From Clostridia bacterium (GTDB lineage Bacteria > Bacillota > Clostridia > Christensenellales > UBA1242), in the NCBI GenBank assembly GCA_900768425.1, contig CAAGCR010000108.1:1-45117 (forward strand): 45,117 nucleotides of DNA. The letters are read 5' to 3'. The translations under genes were made by a program, and so were the position numbers. Shown here piece after piece: positions 25,253 through 44,646 of this stretch (positions are counted from its first letter, which is position 1; each line of letters begins with the position of its first letter). The notes below the pieces were generated by a model, which had not been told where the DNA came from, made no database searches, and was given only the letters and a program-made list of their open reading frames with translations.

Positions 25253-25627
25253 AGATTGATGAATAGAGAATAATGAACAATGACTTATGACAGAAGAATT
25301 ATGACTGATGAATGAATAATGAAGACTGACAACTGATGAATTATTGTCAAATTATAAATATTAGAGTTATCACTAACTTTTGCATTATTCTTTTAGTTTG
25401 AGTCACTACAAGCCTTTACCCCCCCCCTTAGCAGGAGAGCAAAAACTTAGGTATTAAATTCACTATTATGAATAAAACATTAATTTTTCAGTCATCAGTA
25501 TTCATTTATCATTTGTTGCTTTAACAACACAACATTAATTCATCAGTTAGCATTCTTCATTTGTTGCATTAGCAACATAACATCAATCATCATTCATCAT
25601 TAAATAAAATCATTTTAAAGGGTTATT
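25253..25627 (+). repeat. Mosaic intergenic repeat, copy B
   Basis: Purine-word arm (TGATGAAT-type) 25233-25344, TTGTCA core 25345-25420, and two inverted arm modules 25488-25600. The core is about 75% identical to 32783-32868. The inverted arm modules match 7018-7066 at about 85%. Confidence 0.75.
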
Positions 25628-27976: not shown

Positions 27977-29113
27977 TTGCAAAAAAAGAGTTTAAAAAAC
28001 TTGTTTATTGTTTCAAAAAACAAAAAACCGGATATGCTTAGCGTTACTGTAGTTTGTTTGACTCTTTTTTTGTGCCTTGTTGGTTGTGTTATGGTATATA
28101 GTGCAAGCAGTTATTCAGCACTAAAAAACTATCATAATCAGTATCATTTTTTAATTAAACAAATTGTCGGTGTTATTGTCGGATTTGGTGGGCTTGCGTT
28201 TTTTTACTTTTTTGATAGTGACATATTAAAAAAATTAAAATGGCTGTTTTGGAGTGTGGCTGTAATTGGCCTTGTGCTTGTGTTTGTTCCGGGAATTGGT
28301 GCAAGCAATTATGGGGCAACTCGTTGGATAAGAATCGCAGGCGTGTCTTTTCAGCCGAGTGAACTTGCTAAGTTTGCCTTAGTGCTTTTTTGTGCTAGTT
28401 ATTTAAGCGATAATTTTAAAAAAGTCAAAAGTTTTAAAAGTTTGCTTTTGCCTATGCTAGTAGGCGGTGCATTGTGTTTGCTTGTAATTTTAGAGCCAAA
28501 TATGAGCGTTACTATGTGTTTAGGTTTAACACTTATTGCAATGCTTATCATAGGTGGTATATCAAAAAAACATTTTATGACATTATCCGTTCCGGCAATG
28601 GCTCTTGTTCCTGTGCTTATTATCATCGAGCCATATAGAATGAAAAGATTAATGGCATTTATTGACCCTTGGGCAAATCCGAAAGGTGAGGGCTTTCAAG
28701 TAATACAGTCTTTATATGCACTCGGCAATGGTGGACTCTTTGGGGTTGGACTTTTTAATAGTCGTCAAAAATATCTATTTTTGCCTTTTAGTGAATCAGA
28801 TTTTATATTTTCCATTATAGGTGAAGAATTAGGACTCTTTGGTGCGATAGTAATAATTCTTGCATATGTTGCTTTGGTTGTATGCTTAATAAAAATAGCA
28901 CTAAACGCAAAAAGTCGTTTTGGTGCTTTATTAACCGCGGGTATAGGTTGCCTAATAGCCATACAACTAGCAATAAACATAGCCGTTGTAACTTGCTCAA
29001 TTCCACCAACAGGAATACCACTGCCATTTATCTCAGCCGGCAGTTCCGCCCTAGTAATATTTTTAAGTATGATAGGTGTTACCCTAAATGTTAGAAAAAA
29101 GAGTTTAATGTAG
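27977..29113 (+). CDS. ftsW: SEDS-family peptidoglycan glycosyltransferase FtsW/SpoVE
   Basis: Ten-helix SEDS pattern (RWI..G..FQPSE, SESDFIF, GLPLPFISAGGSS-like) following murD. Confidence 0.85.
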   Translation: MQKKSLKNLFIVSKNKKPDMLSVTVVCLTLFLCLVGCVMVYSASSYSALKNYHNQYHFLIKQIVGVIVGFGGLAFFYFFDSDILKKLKWLFWSVAVIGLVLVFVPGIGASNYGATRWIRIAGVSFQPSELAKFALVLFCASYLSDNFKKVKSFKSLLLPMLVGGALCLLVILEPNMSVTMCLGLTLIAMLIIGGISKKHFMTLSVPAMALVPVLIIIEPYRMKRLMAFIDPWANPKGEGFQVIQSLYALGNGGLFGVGLFNSRQKYLFLPFSESDFIFSIIGEELGLFGAIVIILAYVALVVCLIKIALNAKSRFGALLTAGIGCLIAIQLAINIAVVTCSIPPTGIPLPFISAGSSALVIFLSMIGVTLNVRKKSLM

Positions 29114-29175
29114 TATTGGTGTTTTTGTTGATTTGAAAATGTTATTTGTAATATAATTAGCACAAGGAGTAAAAT

Positions 29176-29628
29176 ATGAAATTATCTGAAGCATTAATTA
29201 TAAGAAGTGATTTACAAAAACGCGTTGAACAAATTAGAATGCGTCTTGTTGCAAATGCAAAAGTTCAAGAGGGGGATAAAACTGCAGAAGACCCAAATGA
29301 GATTTTGGCAGAACTTGACCAAACTATAACTGATTTAACAGACATTATAAAAAGAATAAATTTAACAAATAGTGTAGTAACCGATGGTAAAAATACTATA
29401 ACTGAGTTGTTGGCAAAAAGAGATTGCTTGTCTTTAAAAATAAAAATTGAGCAAGAATTTTTAACCACTGCCAGAAACAAAATTGATAGATATTCCAATA
29501 AAGAAATTAAAGTATTTAGTGCAATAGATGTCAAAACAGAACAAGCAAAACTTGATAAATTGTCGAAAGAATTAAGAGAGTTAGATGTTAAAATTCAAGC
29601 ATTAAACTGGGCATCTGATTTAATTTAA
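29176..29628 (+). CDS. DIP1984-family (septicolysin-like) helical protein
   Basis: From memory, the N-terminus MKLSEALIIRSDLQKR...AKVQEGD..AEDPNE...INLTN and the C-terminal LNW motif match this 150-aa family. Confidence 0.65.
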   Translation: MKLSEALIIRSDLQKRVEQIRMRLVANAKVQEGDKTAEDPNEILAELDQTITDLTDIIKRINLTNSVVTDGKNTITELLAKRDCLSLKIKIEQEFLTTARNKIDRYSNKEIKVFSAIDVKTEQAKLDKLSKELRELDVKIQALNWASDLI

Positions 29629-29980
29629 TAAGTAAAATGAATTTTTTGATATTGTTTTAGACTTAAAAATATCTATTTTTTAAGTTGCAAACAAGCAAAA
29701 TGTTGAAAATTTATATATTTTTATTAAAAAGATTTTGTTTTTTACATATTAAAAGTGCATAGTGAGTAGCAATAATTGGGGTGTAACCCTTTACGTGGTT
29801 TTTGGGTAAAAAAATTCACAAAGAATTAGGGGTCCGCGGGAAAGGCTGACCGCAAAAATTAACATAAAATGCCAGCATATTAACATGTGCATTTTTATAT
29901 TTAACATTTACTACCAACATCAAATTATTGCGAGGGTTGAGGTTTAGGGGAAAATTTAAAATTGTGCCATAATAAATACT

Positions 29981-30022
29981 CTACTGAAAGATTTTATTGA
30001 CTTTTGAAAAATCTTTCAGTAG
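29981..30022. promoter_or_regulatory. Perfect 15-bp inverted repeat (CTACTGAAAGATTTT / AAAATCTTTCAGTAG) with TTGACT in the 12-nt loop
   Basis: Read directly from the sequence. A third half-site TGAAAGATTTTCTACT lies at 30085-30100. I read it as an operator-like element upstream of the phage-like cluster. Confidence 0.5.
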
Positions 30023-30135
30023 ATGTAGTATTTATTTAGAGGGTTGGCTTATATAAGTTTGTTTTTAATTAAAACATATTAAATTGAAAGATTTTCTACT
30101 TATGTCCGAACTATAATTAGAAAAAATTTAAAAAA

Positions 30136-30169
30136 CTCCGTCACAGGGTTATTGTGATGGGGTTTTTTG
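30136..30169 (+). terminator. Intrinsic terminator 45 nt upstream of the first phage-like gene
   Basis: CTCCGTCACA-GGGTTAT-TGTGATGGGG 10-bp stem followed by TTTTTT. Confidence 0.65.
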
Positions 30170-30213
30170 TTGGTATTATTTTGGTGTGATTTGCAAGGGG
30201 AGGACAAAATGGA

Positions 30214-30561
30214 ATGAACATTGCAGAAGAAATTGATGGCAAAATGATTAAAAAAGTATTAGATGCTTTAACCAAAAAGGCTACAGGTTATGAAACCAAA
30301 GAAGTTACAGAAGAGTATACAAATGATGGTGAAAAAGATGTTTTGACCAAAAAGAAAATCTGCAAATATTATGTCCCGGCAGACATATCAGCGGCTAAGT
30401 TACTTTTAGATGTCTGTGGCACGAGTCAACAAAAAAGTTATTACGGAATGAGTGATGAAGAATTGGACAATGAGGCCATTAGACTATTTAAAGAGTATCA
30501 AAGTTTGACTGACAAAAATATTTTTAATGAAGTAGAAGGAGAAGTAGGTGAAGATAGTTAA
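30214..30561 (+). CDS. Terminase small-subunit-like protein (C-terminal half only)
   Basis: ATGYETKEVTEEYTNDGEKDVLTKKKICKYYVPADISAAKLLLD resembles the conserved GYEYEE..EYD..G....K.....K..PPD..A..FWL core of Firmicute phage TerS proteins. The N-terminal HTH half is absent. Confidence 0.45.
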   Translation: MNIAEEIDGKMIKKVLDALTKKATGYETKEVTEEYTNDGEKDVLTKKKICKYYVPADISAAKLLLDVCGTSQQKSYYGMSDEELDNEAIRLFKEYQSLTDKNIFNEVEGEVGEDS

Positions 30562-30757
30562 AATAGCGTACAAAACAAAATGCGATTTCCCCGGTTGTAA
30601 AAATTTGGCAGAAAAAATAATTTGTGATGAAAACGATTCTGCAAAAAAGTTACAACTATGTGATGTATGTTTAAACAACATATATAATTGCGTTGCGAAA
30701 ACGGTTATCCCTAAGGGAATTGAAGCACCTTTTAAAAATCAAAGAAAATTAAGATAA
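30548..30757 (+). CDS. Small Cys-rich (C-x4-C ... C-x2-C) zinc-ribbon-like protein
   Basis: 69 aa, GTG start with an AGGAG SD. It overlaps the upstream gene by 14 nt. Confidence 0.45.
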   Translation: MKIVKIAYKTKCDFPGCKNLAEKIICDENDSAKKLQLCDVCLNNIYNCVAKTVIPKGIEAPFKNQRKLR

Positions 30758-30765
30758 GGAGATTT

Positions 30766-32640
30766 ATGAAAAAAAACGAAGAACAAGAACTTGTAAAAGA
30801 AGTGACCGATGATTTCAAAAAACGAAGTTATGAGCGTAAACCTTTTGATGCACAATGGCAATTAAATATGAACTTCTTGATGGGAAATCAATATTGTAGC
30901 ATAGGTTATAATAACGATGTTGAAGAATATGACAAACAATTTTTTTGGCAAGAAAGAGAAGTTTTTAACCATATAGCAAGCATAATAGAAACAAGACTTG
31001 CCAAGCTAAAAACAGTAAGACCAACAATGACAATAGTGCCGGCAAGCGGTGATGAAAGTGACATAAAAACAGCCAAATTAAGTAAAAAAATTGTCAATTC
31101 AATTTACAATAAAGAAGATATGTCAAAACTTATTTGTGAAGCTACTAAATGGAGTGAAATAACGGGTTCGGTTTTCTATAAAATTACATGGAACAATAAC
31201 AAAGGGCAAACATTTGCAGTAAACGACAAGGGTGAAAAGTTAAAAATGGGAGATGTGCAAATATCAATTTGTTCACCTTATGAAATCTATCCAGAAAGCA
31301 CTGCATCAACTAACTTGCAAGACTGCAAATCAATTATTCATGCAAAAGCATATCACATAGATGAAATAGAAAAACTATGGGGTAAAAAAGTTGCTGGTGG
31401 TGATGTAAATGTTTTCTCGCTAGATGCTAAAAATGATGGCATTGGTGGGCTTGGTTATAATGCTCGGGCTCCAAGAGTTGTAAATACCATAAAGAGCAAC
31501 TATGCGGTAGTAATTGAAAAATATGAAAAGCCAAATCTTAAATATCCGAACGGTAGACTAATTATTGTGGCAGGTGACCAGTTGCTATATGCGGGCGACC
31601 TACCATATGAAAACGGCAATGATGGCGAAAGAACTTTTCCGTTTGTTCGCCAAGTATGCTTAGAACAAAGCGGTTGTTTTTGGGGTGCAAGTGTTATTGA
31701 AAGAATAATACCTGTACAAAGAGCATACAATGCAGTAAAAAATAGGAAACACGAATATATCAACAGATTATCAATGGGGGTTTTGACCGTAGAAGATGGC
31801 TCGGTAGATATTGACAACTTAGAAGAAGAGGGCTTGTCACCAGGTAAAATTTTGGTGTATAGACAAGGTTCTTCTGCACCTAGTTATATGGCAAACACAA
31901 ATGTTCCGGCAGATTTTTCAATAGAAGAAGAACGTCTTTTAAATGAATTTAAAGTAATTAGTGGTGTGTCTGATATTATTAATTCAAATATTGCCAATAG
32001 CAATATTTCAGGTGTTGCTTTGCAACTTTTAATTGAACAAGATGAAGCAAGACTGTCAGTCACTAGTGACCAAATAAAAATGGCAATAAAAGATGTTGCA
32101 AAACACATTTTAAGACTATACAAACAGTTCGCAACAGTGCCACGTTTATTTAAAATTGTAGGCGATCATGGTGAATTAGAAGTCAACTATTTTAGTGCAT
32201 CTGATATCACCAGTGATGATATAACCTTTGAAACCGATACAGAACTAAACGAATCTTTGGCACAGCGTAGAACAATGGTTTTTGATTTGTTAAAAGCGGG
32301 ACTTTTGTACAACGAAGATGGAAAACTTACAAACAGAATGCGAATAAAAGCATTAGAACTTTTAGGTTTTGGTGTTTGGGAAAATTCACAAGATATTATG
32401 GAACTTCATCAAAAGAAAGCAGCGTGTGAAAATTCACATTTAATGAATGGTGATAAAATATCTGTCAGTGAAATTGATGACCATGATATTCACATAAATG
32501 AGCATATTGCTTTTATGTTAGGTGGAGATTACGAAAAGAATGCAACAAAAGAAATAGAAGCAAAATTTTTAGAACACATACGAGAACATAAAAAATACAA
32601 ACAAATAAATAATGAGATAGAAAATAGTCAAATACAATAA
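30766..32640 (+). CDS. Phage portal protein
   Basis: The call rests on its size (624 aa), the N-terminal W.LN.NF..GNQY motif, acidic internal segments and its position directly upstream of scaffold and capsid genes. Confidence 0.7.
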   Translation: MKKNEEQELVKEVTDDFKKRSYERKPFDAQWQLNMNFLMGNQYCSIGYNNDVEEYDKQFFWQEREVFNHIASIIETRLAKLKTVRPTMTIVPASGDESDIKTAKLSKKIVNSIYNKEDMSKLICEATKWSEITGSVFYKITWNNNKGQTFAVNDKGEKLKMGDVQISICSPYEIYPESTASTNLQDCKSIIHAKAYHIDEIEKLWGKKVAGGDVNVFSLDAKNDGIGGLGYNARAPRVVNTIKSNYAVVIEKYEKPNLKYPNGRLIIVAGDQLLYAGDLPYENGNDGERTFPFVRQVCLEQSGCFWGASVIERIIPVQRAYNAVKNRKHEYINRLSMGVLTVEDGSVDIDNLEEEGLSPGKILVYRQGSSAPSYMANTNVPADFSIEEERLLNEFKVISGVSDIINSNIANSNISGVALQLLIEQDEARLSVTSDQIKMAIKDVAKHILRLYKQFATVPRLFKIVGDHGELEVNYFSASDITSDDITFETDTELNESLAQRRTMVFDLLKAGLLYNEDGKLTNRMRIKALELLGFGVWENSQDIMELHQKKAACENSHLMNGDKISVSEIDDHDIHINEHIAFMLGGDYEKNATKEIEAKFLEHIREHKKYKQINNEIENSQIQ

Positions 32641-33175
32641 CAAATGAAGAATGAGAACTGATGAATTAATGATAATATTCCAGTGAACAAAACACGATGT
32701 GGCTTGCAGTGAACGGTCAAAGACCGCAGTGAATGAACAACAAGTTGTTCGCTGTGAAGTGCAAGCCTTAGGCTTGCGGTGATTGTCAAGTTTATATATT
32801 TTTATTTTGAGTTATTACAAACTTTTGTTATCACCAATTAACTTTGAGTCATCACAAGCCTTTGCTCCGAACAAAAGTGGCTGGCATTTGCAAAGCAAAT
32901 GACTGTGTTGTTTCTCTGCCTATTGAAAAAATAATCAATACTTATAATTAAAGAATTAAGGATAATATCAAAAAAAATAATTAATAAATATTTATTAAAA
33001 ATTATTTAATAATTAATTTTTAATTAAATTAATGTTTTAATTATTTATATATAAAATCTAATAAGAAATTATCAAAAAAAGATAAAAATAATCCTTAATT
33101 CATCATTTATCATTAATTTTCAATCATCATTAACTTTAACTCATTATTTATTAATAAACAAAAATAGGAGATATT
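32641..33175 (+). repeat. Mosaic intergenic repeat, copy C
   Basis: Arm module 32641-32672, GTGAA-hairpin array 32681-32783, TTGTCA core 32783-32868, an AT-rich segment, and an inverted arm module about 33090-33135. The homology to copies A and B is given in their entries. Confidence 0.75.
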
Positions 33176-33841
33176 ATGGAAGAAATAAAAAATTTAGGGG
33201 AACAACCTGAAAATCAAAACAAGGAAAATGTACAAAGTGAAATTGTTGAAGAAGTGAAAGAAGGTACGACTTGTCCTTGTGAGAATGAAGGCTCCCTAGG
33301 TAAATTTAAAGATACCACAAGTTTACTTTCTGCCTATAACAGTTTGCAGGCAGAGTTTACTAAAAAGTGTCAAAAATTAAGCGAGATTACAAAACAATTA
33401 AATGATAATCAGACCTTAAACAAAGAAGAGAGTATGCCGGTTTTTGCCGATGCTAATTGGCAAGAAAATGTTTCAAACTTCTTATCAAAAAATACCGAGG
33501 CACAAAAATATTCGGGAGAGATTGCAAACGAAATTCTTATGGATAAAAATTTGCAATCTTCTCCAAATGCCTTGGAACTTGCTTGGGCAAGAGTAATGCA
33601 AAAAAATTATGCCGAGCCTGAAAAATTATCTAATGATCAAAACTTCATCAATGAAAAAATTTTGAGCAGAGATGATGTAAAAAAACAAGTTTTAGAAGAA
33701 TATTTTAAAAATCTACAAAATGTAAAAACTCCACCAGTTATTACTTCTGATGGAAGTGTGGCAAGCATAGTAGAAAAAAAGCCTACTACAATGCATGAGG
33801 CAAAACTAGCGGTGGAGAAACTATTTAACTTAAAAGGATAA
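33176..33841 (+). CDS. Phage capsid scaffolding protein
   Basis: Acidic helical 221-aa protein with the GKFKDTTSLLSAYNSLQAEFTKK motif common in scaffold proteins. It lies between portal and capsid. Confidence 0.65.
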   Translation: MEEIKNLGEQPENQNKENVQSEIVEEVKEGTTCPCENEGSLGKFKDTTSLLSAYNSLQAEFTKKCQKLSEITKQLNDNQTLNKEESMPVFADANWQENVSNFLSKNTEAQKYSGEIANEILMDKNLQSSPNALELAWARVMQKNYAEPEKLSNDQNFINEKILSRDDVKKQVLEEYFKNLQNVKTPPVITSDGSVASIVEKKPTTMHEAKLAVEKLFNLKG

Positions 33842-33844
33842 TAA

Positions 33845-35071
33845 ATGGTAACTTTATCAAGCGCAGAAAGCGCATTAAAAACAGTATATTTGGGTGTCGT
33901 TGCAAATCAATTAAACATTAACGCAAACCCATTACTTGGAAAAATTAAACAAACAACAAAAGATGTCTGGGGTAAAGAAGTTAGAAAACTTGCTCCATAC
34001 GGAATTAACGGTGGTATTGGTGCAGGTGCAGAAGATGATGCACTTCCAAAAGCCGCTGGAAACAAATATGTTCAATTCGTGTCAGAACTTAAAAACTTAT
34101 ATGGCAAAATTGAACTTTCTGACAAGGCAATTCGTGCATCAGAAAACAATGCAGGTGCATTTGTCAATTTATTAAACGATGAAATGGAAGGCTTAGTAAA
34201 AGCATCTTCATTCAACTTTGGTCGTATGCTTTTTGGTGATGGTTCAGGTTTACTTGCAACTGTGCAATCTTTTGATTCATCAACAAAAGCTATTACTTGT
34301 GACACTGTAAAAAACTTGATAGAAGGAATGGTTATTGATACATATGCAACTTCCGGTAAAGTGGCTAATAGCAGTGGCGTAAGAATTAAATATGTTGACC
34401 GCGTAAACAAAAAAGTTTATATCGAAGACACAACCGTTACTTTCTCGGCTAACGATAAACTTTATGTTCAAAATTCAAAAGATTTTGAAATTACAGGGCT
34501 TGGAAAAATTTTCTCTAACTCAACCAAACTATATGGCTTAACAAGAGCAGATTATCCATGGCTTGCTCCTTACACTAAAACAAGTGCAGGGGAAATTAGC
34601 GATGGCTTAATTCAAAGTGCTATTGACTTTTTAGAGGAGGTTTCTGGCTCAGAAATTAACTATATTGCTTGCTCAAGTGCAGTAAGACGTGCTTATCAAG
34701 AATATTTAGGTGCATATAGAAGAAATATTGATATTGCAGTTTTAGATGGTGGTTATAAGGCTATATCATACAATGGTATTCCACTTGTTGCCGACAGATT
34801 TGTTGCTGATGATACAATGTATCTTTTGAATACTAATGACTTTACTTTACATCAACTTTGCGACTGGAAATGGTTAGAAGGTGAAGATGGTAGAGTAATT
34901 CGCCAAAATATGGGTTTCCCAACTTACAGTGCTACTCTTGTTAAATATGCTGACTTAATTTGCGATAAACCAAATGGTCAAGCAAAAATTAGCGGTATTT
35001 CTAGCACAGTAACTAACCCTTTTGCACCGGTTGTAAATAACAATATCACAAATACAACTGCCAATGGCTAA
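33845..35071 (+). CDS. Phage major capsid protein (HK97-fold type)
   Basis: 408 aa, immediately after the scaffold gene. Its composition and segments (YGKIELSDKAIRAS, FNFGRMLFGDGSG) resemble major capsid families. Confidence 0.7.
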   Translation: MVTLSSAESALKTVYLGVVANQLNINANPLLGKIKQTTKDVWGKEVRKLAPYGINGGIGAGAEDDALPKAAGNKYVQFVSELKNLYGKIELSDKAIRASENNAGAFVNLLNDEMEGLVKASSFNFGRMLFGDGSGLLATVQSFDSSTKAITCDTVKNLIEGMVIDTYATSGKVANSSGVRIKYVDRVNKKVYIEDTTVTFSANDKLYVQNSKDFEITGLGKIFSNSTKLYGLTRADYPWLAPYTKTSAGEISDGLIQSAIDFLEEVSGSEINYIACSSAVRRAYQEYLGAYRRNIDIAVLDGGYKAISYNGIPLVADRFVADDTMYLLNTNDFTLHQLCDWKWLEGEDGRVIRQNMGFPTYSATLVKYADLICDKPNGQAKISGISSTVTNPFAPVVNNNITNTTANG

Positions 35072-35108
35072 AAGGTTTTAAAATGCCTATAAGGTGAACT
35101 TTGAGAAC

Positions 35109-35206
35109 GAGCGGTAAAGTTTGTGACTTATAAAATAAGTCACAAAAGCCAAATTGATAATTCAATTTGGCTAGCACACTAAAATTTTAGTGTGCCTTTA
35201 CCGCTC
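35109..35206 (+). ncRNA. Perfect four-way-junction element (candidate structured RNA or DNA cruciform)
   Basis: An outer 11-bp stem GAGCGGTAAAG/CTTTACCGCTC encloses three perfect hairpins: 35123-35143 (9 bp), 35148-35171 (10 bp) and 35174-35195 (palindrome). It is preceded by GGTGAAC at 35093-35099. The strand is not determinable. Confidence 0.5.
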
Positions 35207-35259
35207 TAAGAAATCTTAAACAAACCTACATAATTTGCTTTAATTTTAAAAGGAGAAAA

Positions 35260-35595
35260 ATGGAAAAAGTAATTGTAAATAGTGACGCTTTAGGAATAAT
35301 AGACCGCTTAAAAATGTGGAATAAAAAATATGAAATTTATTATAATCTAAAATCTAAAAAATATATGTTATACCTTTTTGAAAACGAATTAAAACCAAGT
35401 GCATATTGCTTGACCTATCCATTTGATCAGATTGATGAGCGAATGATAGACTACACATTAAAAAGCGAAATACAAAACCGTAAAGCGTATTTAAAAGAAA
35501 TAGAGGAGTCCAATGCTCTCCTTTTAAGAAAAGAGCAAAAAAATATGTTAAATAAAATGGAGAATCATTTAAGTGACAGCAAAAGAAATAATTAA
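35260..35595 (+). CDS. Hypothetical phage-cluster protein (111 aa)
   Basis: Good AAGGAG SD. I recognise no motif. Confidence 0.5.
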   Translation: MEKVIVNSDALGIIDRLKMWNKKYEIYYNLKSKKYMLYLFENELKPSAYCLTYPFDQIDERMIDYTLKSEIQNRKAYLKEIEESNALLLRKEQKNMLNKMENHLSDSKRNN

Positions 35596-36142
35596 AAATG
35601 TTTGTACTTATCTCGGAAAAGAAGAACTATTAAATTCTTCTTTTTTTGAAAACGATGGACAAGAGCCAACAAAAGAGCAAACAAAACAAATAAACAAAAT
35701 GATAGATTGTTTAAACTACATAACAGAAGAATTAGCGACAGAATATTTGCCAATTATAAAGACAAAAGAAGTGACATTAAACTCTGGTGCGATTACATTA
35801 AAAGAAATAGATAGTAAATTACAAGAGATAATTTCAGTAAAAACTCTAAACGGAAAAACTCTAAGATACACCATAGCAAATGATAAAATGATATGCCTTG
35901 CAACAAGGGTGGTTATAAGTTATAAGGTATATCCCGAAACAATAACATTTACATCTTTGGCGGAAAACTTTGGTGGTAAAATCTCCGCAAGAGTAATTGC
36001 TTATGGTGTGGCAAGTGAATATTGCTTTTTAGAAATGTTATATGATGATGCAACGCTTTGGGAAAGCAGATATAAAAATGCTTTACTTGTAGCATCGCGT
36101 AAAAAAGGGGAAATACAACTTAAAAAAAGAGGGTGGTTTTAA
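35573..36142 (+). CDS. Putative head-tail adaptor/connector protein
   Basis: 189 aa, and its position after the capsid gene matches the podoviral adaptor (T7 gp11-like size). GTG start. The call rests on position and size only. Confidence 0.4.
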   Translation: MTAKEIIKNVCTYLGKEELLNSSFFENDGQEPTKEQTKQINKMIDCLNYITEELATEYLPIIKTKEVTLNSGAITLKEIDSKLQEIISVKTLNGKTLRYTIANDKMICLATRVVISYKVYPETITFTSLAENFGGKISARVIAYGVASEYCFLEMLYDDATLWESRYKNALLVASRKKGEIQLKKRGWF

Positions 36143-37644
36143 TGTTTTATCCAAACCGAAAATTACGCAAAACAAGCAAACAAGCGGTTGTAAATTTTAC
36201 TAATTTTCAAAAATGTATGAACACAGACACAGATGAAGCCTTGTTGCCATATAAAGAAGCAAAACTGTCATATAATTTCAATGTTAAAAATGGCGCTCTT
36301 TGCACAGGTTATGGTGTTAAAGCTTTAACTTTACCAAAACTATCTTTGCTAGGGGAAAGAATTATAAAAAATCCAGGCAAAGATATAAAACAAATTTGGA
36401 AGTATAAATATTATCATCAAAGTGTAAAACGCGATGATTCACAAATAGTGTGTATGGACTCTGATGGACAAATATATTATGTTTTGATTCAAGACAATTC
36501 CTCAGCATGTTGCCCACTATTTGACCAAACACCATTCACCGGTGTGCCAACGGCAATTAATTATAGGTTAAATTCGACCGATACATTAATATTTTCTTCT
36601 GAAGAAGATGGTATGTGGAAGTACGCAACAAACGAAGGGCTTACAAAGGTAGAAGATGCTCCACATATTGTATCCATGTGTGTGCATTATGAAAGATTAT
36701 TCGCTGTTGTTGGTGGTGAGCGTAATAGACTTGCGTTTTCAGCGAACCTAGATCCAACAAATTGGAAAGCTGACCTTACTGATGGTGGGTTTATTGATAT
36801 GCAAGATGAAAGAGGTGCATTGCAAAAGGTAGTATCATTTAATGATTATGTCTATGTGTTTAGAGATTATGGAGTTACAAAAGTATCTGCATATGGCGAC
36901 CAGACAGATTTTAGCGTTTCGCACCTATTTGTGTCTAGTGTAAAGTTATATGGCGATACAGTTACGGTATGTGGCAATAAAATATTGCTTTTGACAAGAG
37001 ATGGCATTCACACCTTTGATGGTTATTCAACTCATAAATTGAATTTAGGAATAGATGACCTTTTCAAAGATGTGCATAATGACAATGCTTGTGGTGTATA
37101 TTTTAAGAACAAATTTTTGCTTGCTTGCAAACTTAACTTTAACGATGATGAGAAAATTGGTTGCGAAAACTACGAAAGTGGATATGTAAACAATGCCTTA
37201 ATTGAATTAGATTTAGTGACAAAAGAAATATCTATAACGCGTGGCATAGATATTGCATCTATGGTGGTTGTAGATGATCCTCGCTTTGCGAAAGTGGTGG
37301 TTTGTTTCAATGGTGAGCATAGTAAAAAATTTGGTGAACTCTGCGAAGACGGTTGTGTATTTGGCGAGCCTCTGGCTAAAAAATGGGTAAGCCCAAAGAG
37401 CAATATGGGGTATCCTACAAAAGTTAAACAAATTAAAGAGTGCTTAATTAAAACAAAATCACCTTGCATAATTGACATAAAAACCGACAAAGAATCAAAG
37501 AGTTTTGAAGTGGAAGGTAAAGATACTTCTCAAAGAATAAAACTTAATATGATTGGCGAACAGATAGAAGTGGCATTCAAATCAAATAGTAGTGGTGAAA
37601 CAAACATATCTTGTCCGCAGATTACACTATTAATCGGAAGTTAA
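36142..37644 (+). CDS. Putative tail tube/nozzle-like structural protein with repeated beta-strand motifs
   Basis: About 500 aa with propeller-like repeats (DGQIYYV, EEDGMWKY, RLFAVVGGERNRLAFS, DYVYVFRDYG, ILLLTRDGIHTF). It has no P-loop, so it is not a terminase. The ATG at 36142 overlaps the upstream stop (TAATG). Confidence 0.4.
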   Translation: MFYPNRKLRKTSKQAVVNFTNFQKCMNTDTDEALLPYKEAKLSYNFNVKNGALCTGYGVKALTLPKLSLLGERIIKNPGKDIKQIWKYKYYHQSVKRDDSQIVCMDSDGQIYYVLIQDNSSACCPLFDQTPFTGVPTAINYRLNSTDTLIFSSEEDGMWKYATNEGLTKVEDAPHIVSMCVHYERLFAVVGGERNRLAFSANLDPTNWKADLTDGGFIDMQDERGALQKVVSFNDYVYVFRDYGVTKVSAYGDQTDFSVSHLFVSSVKLYGDTVTVCGNKILLLTRDGIHTFDGYSTHKLNLGIDDLFKDVHNDNACGVYFKNKFLLACKLNFNDDEKIGCENYESGYVNNALIELDLVTKEISITRGIDIASMVVVDDPRFAKVVVCFNGEHSKKFGELCEDGCVFGEPLAKKWVSPKSNMGYPTKVKQIKECLIKTKSPCIIDIKTDKESKSFEVEGKDTSQRIKLNMIGEQIEVAFKSNSSGETNISCPQITLLIGS

Positions 37645-37723
37645 AAAATGATAATTATAAACAAAAAATTACTGAAAATGATTGCCACTAGGCAAAAGAA
37701 AATAATTGTAAAGGGGGATAGTG

Positions 37724-38629
37724 ATGTATCAATATATTATTGATGACAATACAACTAAAAAAGTAAAAGACAGCACTACAAAAACAAAATCAGTGCTAGA
37801 TAAATTCAGCGATATAGATAAAAAATATACTGTGGGCAACCAAATAGATTCAGATATTTCATTACGAAAAATTGATTATAAAACACCAACACAAGAAGAA
37901 GTGGCAAAAAAGGCAGAAAACAGCCTATTTGACTACAAAACAAGTGGGGTTGATTCAATAAACAATAAATATGACTTGCAAAACTCTTTGGTGGATAAAT
38001 CTATAAAAGATTTAAAAACTAACGAAAAAGAACAAAAGGCAAATATAGAAGATGCATATTCACGTGTTAAAGAAAATGCATCTAACGATGCAATTAAAAG
38101 AGGTCTTGCCCGTTCTTCAATAATTGTAAATAAATTAGAAAATTATGACAATAAAATGTTGAACGATTTGGCAGTTTTGGCTAATAAAACAACTGCAAAA
38201 ATTGACTCGTTAAATACTCAAAAAAATACTTTAACATTAGAAAAACAAAACGCATTAAAAGCCTTTGACCTTGCTTATGCAATTAAACTACAAGACAAAA
38301 TTGATGCTCTTAATGAGGACATAACTAAAAATGAGCAAGCGGCAATAAAATACAACAATCAAATTGCAGAATATGAGGCAAAATGGGAAAGAGAAGTTGA
38401 GCAAGAAAATAATGATAGAGAGATGGCGATGGCTAACTTTATTGCAAAAAACAGTGTATATACCATTAATTCTGTCAAACGTAACGAAAAATATGGCGTT
38501 GCAAAAGAATATCTAAATAGCCTAGATAAACAAACAGCACTTGCCGAACTAACAAGCAATTCGGCATATAAAGAGAACTTAGGCGATACTTTATATGCCC
38601 AACTATTAAAAGAGTTGAACGAAAGATAG
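37724..38629 (+). CDS. Coiled-coil N/K-rich phage-cluster protein, unknown function
   Basis: About 300 aa with long heptad-like helical segments. AAGGGGGA SD. A GTG at 37721 is an alternative start. Confidence 0.5.
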   Translation: MYQYIIDDNTTKKVKDSTTKTKSVLDKFSDIDKKYTVGNQIDSDISLRKIDYKTPTQEEVAKKAENSLFDYKTSGVDSINNKYDLQNSLVDKSIKDLKTNEKEQKANIEDAYSRVKENASNDAIKRGLARSSIIVNKLENYDNKMLNDLAVLANKTTAKIDSLNTQKNTLTLEKQNALKAFDLAYAIKLQDKIDALNEDITKNEQAAIKYNNQIAEYEAKWEREVEQENNDREMAMANFIAKNSVYTINSVKRNEKYGVAKEYLNSLDKQTALAELTSNSAYKENLGDTLYAQLLKELNER

Positions 38630-38811
38630 GATAGTTGGGGAAAATAAGAGTGACAAAATTTTTGAAATTTGGTAGTAAACGAGCATAACTCACCGGCAAT
38701 AAAAAACTTGTTTGCGGTGAAGTATAAATCGTATGCTTAAATTAGGGTTATGTTATGAACAAAACAAATAATAGCCGATATATAAATTCTATTTTTCCCT
38801 AAATAAAAACT

Positions 38812-39054
38812 ATGTGGAACGACATTTTTAATATTGCAATTTCAAATGGCATATTTGCTGCTTTGTTTGTTGCACTTTTAATCTATGAATTAAAAGATTC
38901 GCGAAAACGTGAAGCGAAATATCAAAACACAATAGACAATTTATCTAACAAACTGAATACTGTTGACGAAATAAAACAAGATGTAACAGAAATTAAAGAG
39001 TGTTTGAAGAAAACACCAAGGAGAAAAAATGAAAAAACTGATAAAGTCGTATAG
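38812..39054 (+). CDS. BhlA/UviB-family holin-like protein
   Basis: The N-terminal TM segment ISNGIFAALFVALLIY followed by KDSRKREAKY closely parallels Bacillus BhlA (QGPFAVLFCWLLFYVMKTSKERESKLY). Confidence 0.75.
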   Translation: MWNDIFNIAISNGIFAALFVALLIYELKDSRKREAKYQNTIDNLSNKLNTVDEIKQDVTEIKECLKKTPRRKNEKTDKVV

Positions 39055-39334
39055 ATTTTGGACTGCACTTGCCGGCTCGGCTGGTTTGTTGGTAGTAAGT
39101 ACCGCCAAAATATTTGGTGTAACCATATCAAGTACTGCCGTAGAAGATTTTATTATGGCAATATGTGGTGTTTTAGTAGTTTTAGGTATCGTCAAAAAAC
39201 CTAAAAGTAAAGAAAAAGATAATTCTGTAAAAGATGATAAATCTGACACCGAAGAAATGGGAAAAGATGTAAAGGATGAGTTTTTAGAAAAATTAAAAGA
39301 TGAAAATAAAGAACAAAATCTTAAATCCAAATAA
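39029..39334 (+). CDS. phi LC3-type phage holin
   Basis: Pattern ..FWTALAGSAGLLV.....FG........I.AICGVLVVLGIVKKP with a charged tail. AAGGAG SD. It overlaps the upstream holin gene by 26 nt. Confidence 0.65.
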   Translation: MKKLIKSYRFWTALAGSAGLLVVSTAKIFGVTISSTAVEDFIMAICGVLVVLGIVKKPKSKEKDNSVKDDKSDTEEMGKDVKDEFLEKLKDENKEQNLKSK

Positions 39335-39597
39335 TATAGATAAGCGACACCATCGGAAGTAAAATTTTGCCATAAAGCAAAATTTTTGAAATTGTTATCA
39401 CAATTTCGTTTGATAAATCAAACACTTCCTAGCAAAGCTATCAGTATTTATCAAATTGCACAATTAATGTGCATAGTAAACATTCCGTAAATCGGATTAA
39501 AAACAAACACAAGTTTAATGACAAAAGTTTAAAATAGTTAAATTTTTAACATTTGTATAAAAAACTTGTGTTTTTTTTTGTACAAATCAATTTTTTG

Positions 39598-39626
39598 TTG
39601 AAATAATATAATATATATAGTATAAT
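39598..39626 (+). promoter_or_regulatory. Promoter TTGAAA-17-TATAAT
   Basis: A perfect -10 with a 17-nt spacer, upstream of the GLUG-protein gene. It is preceded by a hairpin plus T-run around 39514-39590. Confidence 0.6.
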
Positions 39627-39709
39627 ATTTATGAAGAAAAGTATAAGCATTAGCCTACTATGATTTATTTCTTCACACTTTTTGGGAGATATAAAAGGAG
39701 GGCAGAATT

Positions 39710-41533
39710 ATGGATATTTTAAAAAATAAATCTAATTTTTTAAAAACATCAGCAATCGTACTTACTTTTGCCGTATTGTTTCAGTTCTTAATTTTTGGAA
39801 TTAGTAAACCTACAAATCACTACTCCCGTCCAGTTGATGCTATCGCGTTTTCATTATCAACATCAGAAGGTAAATACTTGATCAAGGATGCCTACGATTT
39901 AGAATCATTTAGAAAATCTGTCAATTCTGGCGAGTATACTTCAAATAAAACTTTCGTGCTAACCGCTCCAATTTCTGTTGCGAGTAGCTTTGTTAGTATA
40001 GGTACAGCACAATATCCATTTAGAGGAACATTTGATAGTGCTGGCATATATTGTAAAATTACAAACTTAAAAAAACCTTTATTTGGTTATACCAATGGTG
40101 CAACCATTCAAAATATCGAAATAGAGTCTGGCACAATTAGTTATAGTTCAAATTATGTCGGTAGTGTTGTCGGAAATGCAGTAAACACCAATGTTTATAG
40201 ATGTTATAATGGTGCATCAGTCACTAACACGCAAACCTCTGGAAACGCATATGTGGGAGGAATTGTTGGTTATATCAATGGCGGAAGCGTTAGAGAATGT
40301 ACAAACGCAGGCGATGTAAACAATTCAAGCAATAAAGTTGATAAAGCATATGCTGGTGGAATTTTCGGTTTTGCTGAACCAAATGTCGGAATTTCAGATT
40401 GTGTTGTTTATAACTCAAATAATAAGATTAAAATATCCGCAAATGCCAAAGTGACCGAAAATACAACCACTGTTAGGTCAACCAATGATAGCGTATATTA
40501 TTCAAGACTAGAAACGGTAAACCAAGCCGCACAAGAGGCCTTAAATAAAGCGAAAGCAGTCTTGGCAAGTAAAGAAAATGAACAAAATGCATTAAGAAGA
40601 GAAATAAATAATGCCCATGCATGGATAGCGGATAGAAATGCATATATTGCAAGAAGAACACGAGAGGCAAACGATAGTTTTCTTGGTGCTAAGTGGACAT
40701 ACATAGGGCCGGAAATAGCAGGCATTTATGCTGCGATAGGTGCAAGATATACAGAAATAGGTGCTTTAGAGACAGCGCTAAAAATTGCAGAAGGTGCTGT
40801 ATGGGTAGCAAAAGGTGCTGTTGATTTAGCACTTAAAACTGCCAGCAAATCAGTATACGATATGCAATGGGTAAATGCTTATAACAACTGTACAAAAACA
40901 GCAAAAACACAATATGCCTATGCTTATGGCATTGGTTATACCAATGGCTCTGTATATAATTCATATACGGCAAAAGTTAAAACATCTGCCGGAAATGAAA
41001 GCACAACATATAATTTTTACTTAAAATTTTGGGCACAATCAATTAACCAAAACATTATGACATCTAGCGAAGCAATATCTCGTTCGATTACATTCTATAA
41101 CAATGGTTTCTTTGGTCCAGTGTCTAATGGAGATACATATAGTTGTTTCTATTATGAAGACACACCATCTTATAAAAGAGAAATCAAAGTTAATAATGGC
41201 AATAATATGTATAACACAAACAGTTCAATACAAAGCGAACACTCAAATATTGTTAGATTCGGTAAACAAAAACTAATCTTCACCAATAGTGGTGCAACAA
41301 TGTATGTAAGAGTTAATAATAGCACTAATACTGCATTAACTACAATTAATGAATGTAATTATGAAAACTCATTATTGTCATTAAGAGGTTCAACTTGTGG
41401 TTCAAGTCTTACAACATTGACCAACAAAGTTAAAAGTGAATTAAGTTCAAATGTGTGGGGAACAGAATCTTCATTAGAAAATGGCTATCCACATTTAAAA
41501 TATCGTTACTGGCAATATTATGCCGAAGACTAA
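39710..41533 (+). CDS. Signal-anchored GLUG-repeat surface protein with a central helical/hydrophobic segment
   Basis: N-terminal TM helix. GLUG-type repeats (YVGSVVGNAVNTNVYRCYNGASV, YVGGIVGYINGGSVRECTNAGDV, YAGGIFGFAE). C-terminal ENGYPHLKY. Confidence 0.65.
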   Translation: MDILKNKSNFLKTSAIVLTFAVLFQFLIFGISKPTNHYSRPVDAIAFSLSTSEGKYLIKDAYDLESFRKSVNSGEYTSNKTFVLTAPISVASSFVSIGTAQYPFRGTFDSAGIYCKITNLKKPLFGYTNGATIQNIEIESGTISYSSNYVGSVVGNAVNTNVYRCYNGASVTNTQTSGNAYVGGIVGYINGGSVRECTNAGDVNNSSNKVDKAYAGGIFGFAEPNVGISDCVVYNSNNKIKISANAKVTENTTTVRSTNDSVYYSRLETVNQAAQEALNKAKAVLASKENEQNALRREINNAHAWIADRNAYIARRTREANDSFLGAKWTYIGPEIAGIYAAIGARYTEIGALETALKIAEGAVWVAKGAVDLALKTASKSVYDMQWVNAYNNCTKTAKTQYAYAYGIGYTNGSVYNSYTAKVKTSAGNESTTYNFYLKFWAQSINQNIMTSSEAISRSITFYNNGFFGPVSNGDTYSCFYYEDTPSYKREIKVNNGNNMYNTNSSIQSEHSNIVRFGKQKLIFTNSGATMYVRVNNSTNTALTTINECNYENSLLSLRGSTCGSSLTTLTNKVKSELSSNVWGTESSLENGYPHLKYRYWQYYAED

Positions 41534-42259: not shown

Positions 42260-42322
42260 TTTGGTTCTTTGCAGAGCATTAAAGCATCGGGGAAGACTAA
42301 AAACAAGGAGGATAAAAAATTT

Positions 42323-43285
42323 ATGTCAGTTATTTCAATGAAACAACTTCTAGAAGCAGGCGTTCATTTTGGTCACCAAACAAGAAAATGGAATCCTAAA
42401 ATGGCAAAATACATTTTCACTGCTAGAAATGATATTCATATCATCAACCTAGAAGAAACATCAAATCTTGTAGACAAAGCATACTCTTTTGTTAGAGATT
42501 CAGTTGCTGCAGGAAAATCTGTTCTATTTGTAGGAACAAAAAAACAAGCGCAAGAAGCTATTAAAGAAGAGGCAGAACGTTGCGGTATGTTCTATGTAAA
42601 CAACCGTTGGTTAGGTGGTTGCCTTACAAACTTTAAAACAATTCGTAAAAGAATTGACCGCCTAAACAAATTAAACCAAATGGAAAAAGTTGGAGAATTT
42701 AATCTTTTACCTAAAAAAGAAGTTGCTATTTTAAGACACGAAATGGAAAAACTAGAAGCAAACCTTGGCGGTATCAAAGAAATGAGAGAACTTCCTGGTG
42801 TTATCTTCTTAGTAGACTCAGCAAAAGAACACATTTGTGTTAAAGAAGCAAAAAATCTTCATATCCCAGTAGTAGGTTTAATTGATACAAACTGCGACCC
42901 AGATGGTATTGATTATGTTATTCCTGGCAACGATGATGCAATTCGTTCAGTTAAACTAATTGCTTCCGCAATGGCAGATGCAGTTATTGAAGCCAGAGAA
43001 GGTGTATCTTTAACTAAAGACAATGCAGAAGAAGACGAAGATATTGATTTGAAAGCAGTTTTAGCAGAAGTTAAACCAACTGCAAAAGAAGCAGAAGATG
43101 GCGAAAAGAAAGCAAAAAAAGCTGTTAAAAAAGTTGCTAAAAAAGAAGAAGTAGCAACACTTCCACTAGAAAACGAAGAAAAACCAGTTGTAGTTGAAGA
43201 AGTTAAGGAAGAAGTTAAAGAAGAAGCCCCTGTTAAAAAAACAAGAGCAAAAAAAGTTAAACAAGACGAAACAAAAGGAGAATAA
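42323..43285 (+). CDS. rpsB: 30S ribosomal protein S2 with a K/E/V-rich C-terminal extension
   Basis: [27 protein letters not shown] is the canonical S2 N-terminus. The AAGGAGG SD precedes the ATG at 42323 rather than the track start at 42269. Confidence 0.92.
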
Positions 43286-43290
43286 TTTTA

Positions 43291-43938
43291 ATGTTTACCG
43301 CTCAAGATGTTAATAAATTAAGACAAGCCACTGGTGTTGGTATGATGGATTGCAAAAAAGCATTAACTGAAACCAATGGTGACTTTGATAAAGCAGTTGT
43401 ATACCTAAGAGAAAAAGGTATGGCTGCCGCTGCTAAAAAAGCAGACAGAATTGCAGCAGAAGGTGCTGTTACATCATACATCCATATGGGTGGAAAAATT
43501 GGTGTTTTAGTAGAAGTTAACTGCGAAACAGACTTTGTTGCTCGTTCAGATAATTTCCAAGCACTTTGCAAAGATATTGCTATGCAAATTGCAGCATCAA
43601 ATCCTAAATATATCCGCCGTGAAGAAGTTCCAGCAGAAGTTGTTGCAAGCGAAAGAGAAATTGCTTTACAACAAGCAATCAACGAAGGTAAAAAACCTGA
43701 ATTTGCAGACAAAATCGTAAACGGAAGAATTGAAAAATTCTATAAAGAAGTTTGTTTAATGGAACAAGAATTCGTTAAAGACCCATCAAAAGATGTAACT
43801 CAAGTTTTAAACGAAGCAGTTTTACAAATTGGTGAAAAAATCACTGTTCGCCGTTTTGTTCGTTATGAAATGGGTGAAGGTCTTGAAAAACGCCAAGACA
43901 ATTTAGCAGAAGAAGTTGCTAAAATGATGAAAGCGTAA
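43291..43938 (+). CDS. tsf: Elongation factor Ts (short form)
   Basis: UBA-like N-terminus VNKLRQATGVGMMDCKKAL and LVEVNCETDFVA. Confidence 0.92.
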   Translation: MFTAQDVNKLRQATGVGMMDCKKALTETNGDFDKAVVYLREKGMAAAAKKADRIAAEGAVTSYIHMGGKIGVLVEVNCETDFVARSDNFQALCKDIAMQIAASNPKYIRREEVPAEVVASEREIALQQAINEGKKPEFADKIVNGRIEKFYKEVCLMEQEFVKDPSKDVTQVLNEAVLQIGEKITVRRFVRYEMGEGLEKRQDNLAEEVAKMMKA

Positions 43939-44089: not shown

Positions 44090-44129
44090 ACAGACTAAAA
44101 ATTGATAAAATTTTTGGTCTGTTTTTTTT
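44090..44129 (+). terminator. Rho-independent terminator
   Basis: 13-bp stem CAGACTAAAAATT / AATTTTTGGTCTG followed by T8. Confidence 0.75.
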
Positions 44130-44252
44130 AGGAACGCAAGAGCAACGCGAACAATGTGAGTGTTTTCTTTAGGAACGCAAGAACAAGGCGAACAAAGTGA
44201 GTGTTTTCTTTAGGAGAGCAAGAACAACGCGAACAAAGTGAGCGTTTTCTTA
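44130..44252. repeat. Three tandem 41-bp repeats (AGGAACGCAAGAGCAACGCGAACAATGTGAGTGTTTTCTTT-like)
   Basis: The units are 44130-44170, 44171-44211 and 44212-44252, and they differ at a few positions. The last unit ends on the stop codon of the minus-strand XRE gene. Confidence 0.9.
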
Positions 44253-44555
44253 TTTATCTTGCATACCTGATATAAAATCGTTAACACGCTGAATTTGCCT
44301 ATCGTCTAAAGCAATTATTTTTATAATTAAGTCTTTTTTGTCTTCTGGGATATATCCAATATTGTTATTAAATGGTCTTTCACAAAGATAGTCCAAACTA
44401 ACACCTAAATAGTTGGCAAGTTTAACCAAGGCTTCAATGCTTTGGTTGTTTTCGCCATTCTCGTAATTTGAAATTGTTTTTTGCGATACTTTTGCAACAT
44501 CTGCAAGCTCTTTTTGTGATAAGTTTGAGTATAATCTTAGTTCTTTAAGTTTCAT
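44250..44555 (-). CDS. XRE-family helix-turn-helix transcriptional regulator
   Basis: LRLYSNLSQKELADVAKVSQKTISNYENGEN is a classic HTH_3 motif. The ATG at 44555 with an AGGAG SD is preferred over the track start at 44621. Confidence 0.85.
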   Translation of the reverse strand: MKLKELRLYSNLSQKELADVAKVSQKTISNYENGENNQSIEALVKLANYLGVSLDYLCERPFNNNIGYIPEDKKDLIIKIIALDDRQIQRVNDFISGMQDK

Positions 44556-44646
44556 TCGCACTCCTAAATGTATTTTAGGAAGAATAAACACAACTAGCAA
44601 TATTTTTCTAAAAAATAACATAAAAGATAAAAAACTACTAAAATGT

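Follow-up and report, generated by a model that had tools for sequence, protein, structure and literature searches.

A phage-derived head, neck, nozzle and lysis module conserved across gut Clostridia, probably part of a vertically inherited particle system resembling gene transfer agents

Why a bacterial chromosome keeps genes for a viral head and neck among its core genes, with no terminase beside them to fill the head, is the question raised by a 45,117-nt stretch of DNA, hereafter the window, which is contig CAAGCR010000108.1 (forward strand) of assembly GCA_900768425.1 from a Clostridia bacterium (Christensenellales; UBA1242). Between ftsW/DIP1984 (27977–29628) and rpsB (from 42269) lie eleven open reading frames (ORFs), all on the plus strand (30214–39334; hereafter the module), followed by the gene for a protein called p607 and by an 87-aa ORF. 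A preliminary description, drawn from the sequence, had proposed a domesticated particle system resembling a gene transfer agent (GTA), or one using a terminase supplied in trans, alongside a satellite-like capsid module and, as the null hypothesis, a decaying prophage remnant. The analysis presented here favors the first of these: the cluster probably supplies the head, neck, nozzle and lysis genes of a GTA-like particle system (a "viriform") that derives from a short-tailed phage and is inherited vertically, and it is probably not a prophage. That the module is a domesticated and functional system is very likely; judged from sequence, the chance that its function is gene transfer would be about even. 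Full-text literature searches found no description of the module family.

One genome per GTDB species was scanned for the capsid protein of the module, which, with two near-invariant motifs, is carried by at least 586 species representatives, a count that is a lower bound. The titles of the carriers are those of Clostridia, Clostridiales and Eubacteriales metagenome-assembled genomes (MAGs), many labeled Christensenella, from human, ruminant, deer, rabbit and chicken guts. Database relatives of the capsid protein number thousands; identity is 71% or more for each of the best 120, many of which lie on contigs of 100–400 kb. The 80 best capsid loci, which served for ORF clustering, for truncation checks and, where the contig was long enough, for gene order, share an order of 10–11 genes: p115, p69, portal, scaffold, capsid, p111, adaptor, nozzle, (DUF7934), BhlA, holin. 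Some relatives carry an additional, variable gene for a protein of 350–470 aa after the nozzle gene, which the window does not have. The large ORFs of the module are intact in the window, as the preliminary description had it, and no structural gene is internally truncated in about 80 species; the locus is neither sporadic nor pseudogenized in its relatives. It is flanked there by ordinary host genes (PGI and def-fmt; an ABC transporter and comEC-holA; aspS and ileS; pyk and others), and because these flanks differ, a single contaminant contig recurring across bins was excluded as the source of the conservation. The window itself has a G+C content of about 30% throughout, with no compositional break.

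The module is under purifying selection and has been inherited with its hosts. In comparison with L015, the nearest species-level relative (L-numbers are labels of the relative loci compared with the window), the ratio of nonsynonymous to synonymous substitution rates (dN/dS) is 0.01–0.21 for every module gene, and in comparison with more distant relatives, for which dS is partly saturated, it is at most 0.39. Clades of the capsid protein, obtained by clustering with the unweighted pair group method with arithmetic mean (UPGMA), match the classes of genomic context one to one. In the largest of these classes (ABC transporter / module / ComEC; about 40 species), the pairwise identities of the capsid, portal and nozzle proteins track those of the flanking host proteins (Spearman 0.63–0.91), with identities of 76–79% for the capsid protein, 77% for the ABC ATPase and 42% for ComEC. 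Contexts, rank correlations, dN/dS and the lack of truncations all point the same way. Synonymous divergence from L015 is uneven along the window: dS is about 0–0.07 for the genes encoding DUF6847, RpsB and Tsf (29176–29628 and 42269–43938), 0.3–1.9 for the module and 0.5–0.8 for murD and ftsW. Allele replacement was considered as a source of the higher values in the module and was dropped, because murD and ftsW have also diverged and the ribosomal genes are codon-biased; the contrast could reflect either recombination mosaicism or codon bias.

Genes that would make the element autonomous are missing. Family searches found no TerL (large terminase subunit), integrase, replication or endolysin gene between ftsW and rpsB, in agreement with the preliminary description, and no capsid protease or long-tail gene in the module; neither TerL nor an integrase gene is directly adjacent to it in this genome. 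Among the relatives, no integrase, replication or lysogeny gene adjoins the module in any context with precomputed Pfam annotation, on which this check rests, and ORF clustering revealed no recurrent cluster of phage-autonomy genes in the flanks of the 80 loci. In the window and in its relatives, structural genes thus have a fixed chromosomal place with no genes for replication, integration or lysogeny beside them, as is expected of a viriform.

A packaging terminase is nevertheless available in relatives. Clustering of the ORFs that flank the 80 loci recovered, in 16 of them, a 480-aa TerL with Walker A and Walker B motifs (Terminase_6N/6C; 66–84% identity among loci). In the clade that is outermost in the UPGMA clustering of the capsid protein, and in more distant IMG/VR relatives, TerL is encoded directly upstream of p115; the order there runs sigma-like gene, TerL, p115, (p69), portal and so on to the holins, and a membrane protein is usually encoded on the opposite strand between the first two. 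In the clade that is sister to that of the window, one gene for a GLUG-type surface protein stands between TerL and p115. Within the clade of the window, TerL is found on the same contig as the module, 27 kb upstream of it in JGI Ga0318466_10000349 (capsid protein 87% identical) and 18 kb upstream in GCA_054298215.1 (85% identical), in both cases preceded by groES-groEL and the genes for the sigma-like and membrane proteins, with housekeeping genes across the interval. In the ABC-transporter clade, TerL probably lies about 18 kb upstream, as judged by joining loci of different assemblies at dnaK-dnaJ. The closest relatives of TerL among cultured phages are those of the portal and capsid proteins, namely Cellulosimicrobium phage DS1, the Arthrobacter phage Jasmine group and Microbacterium phage Shocker, whose order TerL-small-small-portal-x-capsid is the same as that of the module family; because the nearest phages and the gene order are shared, TerL is regarded as the cognate motor of the module and not as a stray gene. 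A TerL gene may, by analogy with these relatives, be expected elsewhere in the genome from which the window comes. Arranged as a series (adjacent, one gene away, 18–27 kb away, off the readable scaffold), the positions of TerL could tentatively be read as successive steps in the uncoupling of the terminase from the structural genes, with the sigma-like gene staying beside TerL throughout.

This 187-aa sigma-like protein (Sigma70_r4_2, 1.2e-6) is encoded beside TerL wherever the upstream sequence reaches far enough (L095 7796–8359, L100 8507–9070 and L146 8487–9050; also L020, L069, L071, L083 and others). Its gene lies downstream of groES-groEL and accompanies TerL whether or not the structural genes adjoin. 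Between the two, on the opposite strand, a C-terminally anchored membrane protein of 228–285 aa is usually encoded, and the sigma-like and membrane proteins are candidates for a regulator and an accessory of the system, respectively. The sigma-like protein weakly resembles NF005385, "positive control sigma-like factor" (1e-4, below the cut-off), a model that we take to cover Xpf of PBSX. A tblastn search of the window with both proteins returned nothing. No promoter motif shared by the TerL and p115 loci emerged from k-mer enrichment of their upstream regions; the sole enriched k-mer upstream of TerL/p115, ACCTCTACAATATCAGTTTAG, was rejected as such a motif, since it comprises the ribosome-binding-site region and the 5′ end of a divergent ABC ATPase gene.

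The products of the module describe a head, a neck and a short tail. Its first gene encodes p115 (30214–30561), a small acidic protein that is conserved in 67 loci and, in relatives, is encoded downstream of TerL, not upstream. It matches two PHROGs families of "terminase small subunit" weakly (phrog_309 1.1e-4; phrog_23444 1.4e-3), as it does TerS of Tuc2009 (E = 0.6), and a profile search against Protein Data Bank (PDB) chains returned only noise. The TerS-like fragment of the preliminary description thus keeps marginal matches in its favor and is better called, weakly, a possible subunit of the small-terminase type that lacks a DNA-binding domain. The overlapping p69 gene (30548–30757; 57 loci) encodes a zinc-ribbon protein of about 70 aa with four cysteines that are invariant in the alignment (C-x4-C ... 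C-x2-C); family libraries and the PDB-chain profile search gave nothing beyond noise, and its position between TerL/p115 and the portal gene suggests a candidate packaging accessory. The portal protein (30766–32640; 624 aa) is of the P22/SU10 type (Pfam P22_portal PF16510, 1.8e-23; phrog_156, 5.5e-45). The next product (33176–33841) had been taken for a scaffolding protein, an identity that stands on its position between the portal and capsid genes, its acidic composition and its conservation (81 loci); the family search gave no match above noise. The major capsid protein (33845–35071; 408 aa) is of the podovirus type (phrog_14242, 1e-57; NCBIfam NF033394 capsid_maj_Podo, 4.5e-82), and its gene is the most conserved of the module, with 64–97% identity over the 80 best loci. 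Profile searches thus bear out strong portal and capsid homology.

Downstream of the capsid gene, two proteins were identified from AlphaFold2 models built from collected homologs and compared by Foldseek. The 189-aa protein (35573–36142; predicted local distance difference test score, pLDDT, 87.8), previously described as adaptor-sized, is by its predicted fold a head-to-tail adaptor: the top matches of the model are adaptor chains of Pa223 (7.8e-7), KHP30, SU10, DEV, N4 and T7 (gp11), and fold comparison alone identified it, since a sequence-profile search against PDB chains gave nothing. The 503-aa, previously nozzle-sized, protein (36133–37644; pLDDT 86.1, predicted TM score 0.86) has a predicted fold made almost entirely of beta-strand and is, on the strength of that model, a tail nozzle, with matches to Pa223 (9nwi_Y, 1.9e-21, TM 0.73), VP1, GP4, P22 gp10 (8eap_D), SU10 and T7 gp12; its sequence profile also reaches SU10 7z47_G at 1e-3. 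Between the capsid and adaptor genes, a conserved protein of 111 aa (p111, 35260–35595), present in 79 loci, returned only noise from family libraries and from the PDB-chain profile search, and a role as a head-completion or neck accessory is a guess. The coiled-coil protein (37721–38629) belongs to DUF7934 (PF25588, 5.3e-36) and is possibly virion-associated; its gene is carried by 28 of about 80 loci and thus by part of the family only, and the PDB-chain profile search with the protein gave noise. The two holins fall, respectively, into the BhlA family of holin-like proteins (38812–39054; PF10960, 5.7e-19; phrog_2429, 6e-18) and the Phage_holin_1 family (39029–39334; PF04531, 4.3e-5; phrog_297, 6.7e-11; TIGR01598, 2.7e-5). 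A P22/SU10-type portal, a podovirus (HK97-fold) capsid protein, the fold of dodecameric adaptors and the nozzle fold are therefore all present, in agreement with structural ancestry in a podovirus head-neck module of the P22/SU10/Pa223 type.

Four non-coding gaps interrupt the module or follow it, at 32641–33175 (535 bp), 35072–35259 (188 bp), 38630–38811 (182 bp) and 39335–39709 (375 bp); their lengths had been given exactly, and they had been considered atypical of phage late operons. Most relatives are tightly packed and the largest gap is a lineage-specific insertion; long gaps therefore do not characterize the system. Between the portal and scaffold genes, a repeat of about 0.5 kb without strand assignment (32636–33130) resembles a miniature inverted-repeat transposable element (MITE). 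Its family, which has inverted-repeat ends (motif AATGAAGAnTGAnnACTGATGAAT) and GC-rich hairpins and no Rfam match, has further intergenic copies at 6930–7090 and 25229–25565, in keeping with the recurrence reported earlier. The sequence at this site measures 138 nt in L015 as against 483 nt in the window, and the content of the 535-bp gap is, to judge by its sequence, MITE-like, lineage-specific and outside the ancestral module.

A working scheme can be pieced together, at every step, from the genes. A signal integrated by the host would switch the genes on, maybe via the sigma-70-region-4 protein encoded beside TerL. Portal, scaffolding and capsid proteins would then assemble a procapsid like that of P22, without a protease, and a Terminase_6-type TerL made from another locus would package DNA, maybe with the help of p115 and p69; the DNA would presumably be headfuls of host DNA. 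Adaptor and nozzle would seal the vertex at the portal and make up a minimal short tail, and particles would be released by the holin and the BhlA-type protein, acting with a wall hydrolase that is either unlinked or of the host. It is the combination of P22-like procapsid parts, a neck and a lysis pair with a chromosomal terminase acting in trans that would give the system the architecture of a GTA.

Several known systems share parts of this architecture. RcGTA of the Alphaproteobacteria represents a type in which, as in the module, a phage-derived structural cluster without autonomy genes is inherited vertically under purifying selection, with dispersed loci and host regulators (in the module, candidate ones); unlike the module, it is siphovirus-like and has a long tail, a capsid protease and TerL in its main cluster. 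The host phylum differs as well and no sequence relationship is detectable, and RcGTA neck chains are weak Foldseek matches to the adaptor model (ranks 26, 33 and 38). PBSX of Bacillus subtilis resembles the module in its Gram-positive host, its fixed chromosomal position, a lysis cassette of a small membrane protein and a holin and, weakly, a sigma-like late regulator. PBSX differs in being a myovirus-like killing particle with a contractile tail, whose two terminase genes share a single cluster with an amidase gene. The phages of the Jasmine group, Shocker and DS1 have homologous TerL, portal and capsid proteins (23–30% identity) in the same gene order, and the adaptor and nozzle folds of short-tailed phages of the P22/SU10/Pa223 type match the module models. 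The Jasmine-group, Shocker and DS1 phages differ in being autonomous, with genomes of 42–47 kb, annotated tailspike and endolysin genes and, presumably, replication genes elsewhere in the genome, whereas the module has about ten genes and none for autonomy. For RcGTA, a small terminase without a DNA-binding domain, a likeness to p115 as interpreted here, is described in two publications (PMC12946183, PMC6854486).

The closest known system is FpGTA of Faecalibacterium prausnitzii, a podovirus-like GTA-like element on two loci (Borodovich et al., Nat Commun 2026, PMC12946183): an operon of 10.5 kb with TerS, TerL, portal, capsid and nozzle genes, and a second operon, 125 kb away, with fiber and lysis genes; its particles have capsids of about 40 nm and contain 8.4–8.9 kb of DNA (PMC12946183). 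Like the present module as predicted from its genes, FpGTA is a podovirus-type GTA-like element of strictly anaerobic gut Clostridia; both have TerL, portal, capsid and nozzle proteins and an abundant coiled-coil or "TolA-like" protein, and the FpGTA nozzle was named from 8eap, which the module nozzle also matches. Both also lack replication and integration genes, distribute their functions over more than one locus and are near-ubiquitous in their host group. The FpGTA order is TerS-TerL-portal-Prp-like-capsid-...-nozzle-...-TolA-like, and that of the module family is TerL-p115-p69-portal-scaffold-capsid-p111-adaptor-nozzle-(variable)-DUF7934-holins: the place between portal and capsid is occupied by a Prp-like protein in FpGTA and by a scaffold in the module, the FpGTA TerL lies in an operon with TerS upstream instead of upstream of p115 (outermost clade) or tens of kilobases off (window clade), and its holin and endolysin are in the second operon with the fibers, as against holins in the head operon and no endolysin seen here. 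The authors report homologs of FpGTA in 12 of 12 Faecalibacterium genomes examined and not in Gemmiger or Subdoligranulum, as against at least 586 species for the present family. Among the FpGTA proteins (FpGTA I, RCH50844–RCH50852; capsid RCH50849, portal RCH50851, terminase RCH50852; PMC12946183), the capsid is annotated as "N4-gp56 family" and that of the module as NF033394; the differing annotation names suggest a different capsid lineage, and FpGTA is, by annotation, probably a separate lineage. In the same study, which used human fecal viromes, two genera of Christensenellaceae showed GTA-like read peaks of 4.1 kb (HGM11616 sp900761075) and 6.3 kb (QANA01 sp019420265) for which no gene cluster was identified (PMC12946183, Supplementary Data 1). 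The gene content thus suggests that the module family joins the GTA-like domesticated phage elements, and may include true GTAs. That it represents an ancient podovirus-type GTA of order-scale range in Christensenellales-type gut Clostridia, with a progressively uncoupled terminase, and is the possible basis of the packaging in Christensenellaceae, is a broader proposal whose chances fall somewhat below even.

A serious, though clearly less probable, alternative is that the module builds a domesticated particle that does not serve gene transfer, either a PBSX-like killing or lysis particle without productive delivery or a device for programmed lysis or DNA release. The BhlA-holin lysis type is known from Bacillus defective-phage and bacteriocin-like cassettes, PHROGs places the BhlA homolog under bacteriocin production or immunity, the regulator on the TerL side bears its weak likeness to NF005385, and no receptor-binding protein is recognizable in the window module; the authors of the FpGTA study keep the same alternative for FpGTA (PMC12946183). 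Known phage-derived killing particles are, however, long-tailed, whereas a capsid with a short nozzle is encoded here, and the strong conservation of TerL, portal and capsid speaks for selection on DNA packaging. That conservation, and the common phage ancestry of TerL, portal and capsid, also leave very little room for a protein shell free of DNA, whether a compartment like an encapsulin or a particle for protein delivery, that would need no terminase: the readable scaffold of this genome indeed has no TerL, but portal, adaptor and nozzle are the parts of a DNA conduit, and the conservation of TerL extends over the family.

A capsid-encoding phage satellite, a possibility that the preliminary description had allowed, or a hijacker relying on a helper phage for its terminase, tail and induction would explain a locus without TerL, tail fibers or endolysin, and 42 related fragments are listed as viral in IMG/VR. 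It is nevertheless quite unlikely: no integrase, replication or primase, repressor or antirepressor gene was found in any context examined, the module keeps a constant position within each clade and diverges in step with host genes over dozens of species, and a cognate TerL of the same phage ancestry resides in the host chromosome. Of the marks of satellites resembling capsid-forming phage-inducible chromosomal islands (integrase and att sites, a replication or primase module, helper-responsive regulation, mobility between genomes), none of the genes adjoins the module; vertical inheritance, selection and the lack of genes for integrase and replication speak against a satellite that is mobile. 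The IMG/VR loci examined hold the same module with genes of restriction-modification type after the capsid gene, not an autonomous element, and the long IMG/VR contigs (capsid 60–66% identical) were rejected as autonomous phages because their genes from TerL to capsid are followed by methyltransferase and helicase genes. The null hypothesis of a decaying prophage, intact so far by chance, could appeal to the many missing phage functions, the long intergenic gaps and the repeat insertion. It is scarcely credible, the least probable of the readings, and is rejected because the module is conserved, intact, low in dN/dS and co-divergent with host genes: at least 586 species retain the same gene set, no truncation of a structural gene was seen in about 80 species, dN/dS is far from relaxed at 0.01–0.21, the capsid protein is as conserved as the ABC ATPase, and the long gap is lineage-specific, so that neither sporadic distribution, nor pseudogenes, nor relaxed selection is seen.

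What favors a domesticated GTA-like system with its terminase in trans is therefore its occurrence in at least 586 species without pseudogenes, purifying selection, co-divergence with host genes and the separate TerL of close relatives. Some observations weigh against it. TerL is adjacent or 18–27 kb off in relatives, but a tblastn search of the whole window did not find the family TerL, and positions 13.2–76.3 kb of the genomic scaffold (63 kb) show no terminase in precomputed Pfam lists. Endolysin, tail needle, fiber and receptor-binding protein are not recognizable in the window module, and the call of p115 as a TerS is weak because its matches (phrog_309, Tuc2009) are marginal. The 0.5-kb repeat with its GC-rich hairpins could disturb expression in this lineage, and the link between the module and the 4.1- and 6.3-kb packaging in Christensenellaceae may be real and is circumstantial.

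Individual loci depart from the common pattern. In L058 (USKO01000006.1, 4612–6212) the capsid gene directly follows an opposite-strand rpsB, and portal and scaffold genes are missing in the 5 kb upstream, which means either that the module has split further or that the locus is misassembled. On three IMG/VR contigs (L106, L133, L138), the site behind the capsid gene that usually belongs to adaptor and nozzle holds genes for DNA methyltransferase and helicase, apparently an island of restriction-modification or defense. Complete modules occur in MAGs labeled Spirochaetales and Lachnospiraceae (L071, JBFXFT010000001.1; L059; L060), labels that could reflect mis-binning, loose NCBI naming or real transfer beyond the main clade. 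In L098, two XRE-type helix-turn-helix genes directly follow the module holins.

Upstream of p115, the window has a non-coding leader of 585 nt (29629–30213, plus strand) that carries GC-rich patches against an AT-rich genomic background, together with two strong hairpins (about 29973–30036 and 30129–30169), the second of which is a terminator-like stem of 18 pairs followed by a T-run and then by the p115 ribosome-binding site. A 25-mer of the leader is conserved in L015 and in no other locus; Rfam has no family on the leader and reported only tRNA in the whole window. The leader may be a regulatory RNA or attenuator, or the terminator of the upstream operon. Downstream, p607 (39710–41533, plus strand) is a signal-anchored, GLUG/M26_N-like surface protein (PF05342 and PF07581, both weak) that diverges fast and has no PDB match. 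Distant relatives of p607 adjoin the module in L017 and L018 and lie between TerL and p115 in L020, L026–L028 and L035; it shares only an N-terminal GLUG-type domain with the surface protein encoded beside TerL in other clades, and its membership in the system is uncertain. It was rejected as the missing endolysin or fiber, having no catalytic or virion-protein match.

Near the end of the window, a DUF285/leucine-rich-repeat surface protein (44730–45116) has 129 N-terminal residues that are 84% identical to those of the protein encoded right after TerL in L100 (11794–14277), a member of a distant clade, and this N-terminus has the appearance of a mobile module that variable surface proteins share. 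A 41-nt unit occurs three times in tandem (44120–44251; 91% matches) directly upstream of a divergent XRE/CI-like helix-turn-helix gene (44250–44621, minus strand); the copies are possibly operator sites. At the other end (about 10–1235, minus strand), 29 kb from the module, the scaffold_204 annotation places an IS3-type transposase with rve domains and a 118-aa ORF.

To our knowledge, GTAs are known from very few lineages, and FpGTA, described in January 2026, is the sole one from gut anaerobes. A conserved, selected and vertically inherited module in at least 586 species of Clostridia would be a concrete candidate for the genes behind the packaging in Christensenellaceae, and would indicate an important path for gene flow, or for programmed lysis, in heritable, health-associated gut bacteria. 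Virus-prediction tools will label such loci as prophages, as the 42 relatives already in IMG/VR illustrate. The family records stages at which a phage packaging operon was dismantled and scattered in the host chromosome while, very likely, remaining functional. If the GTA-like reading is true, it would form a large family of podovirus-type GTAs that, like the RcGTA type, co-diverges with its hosts, here over hundreds of species.

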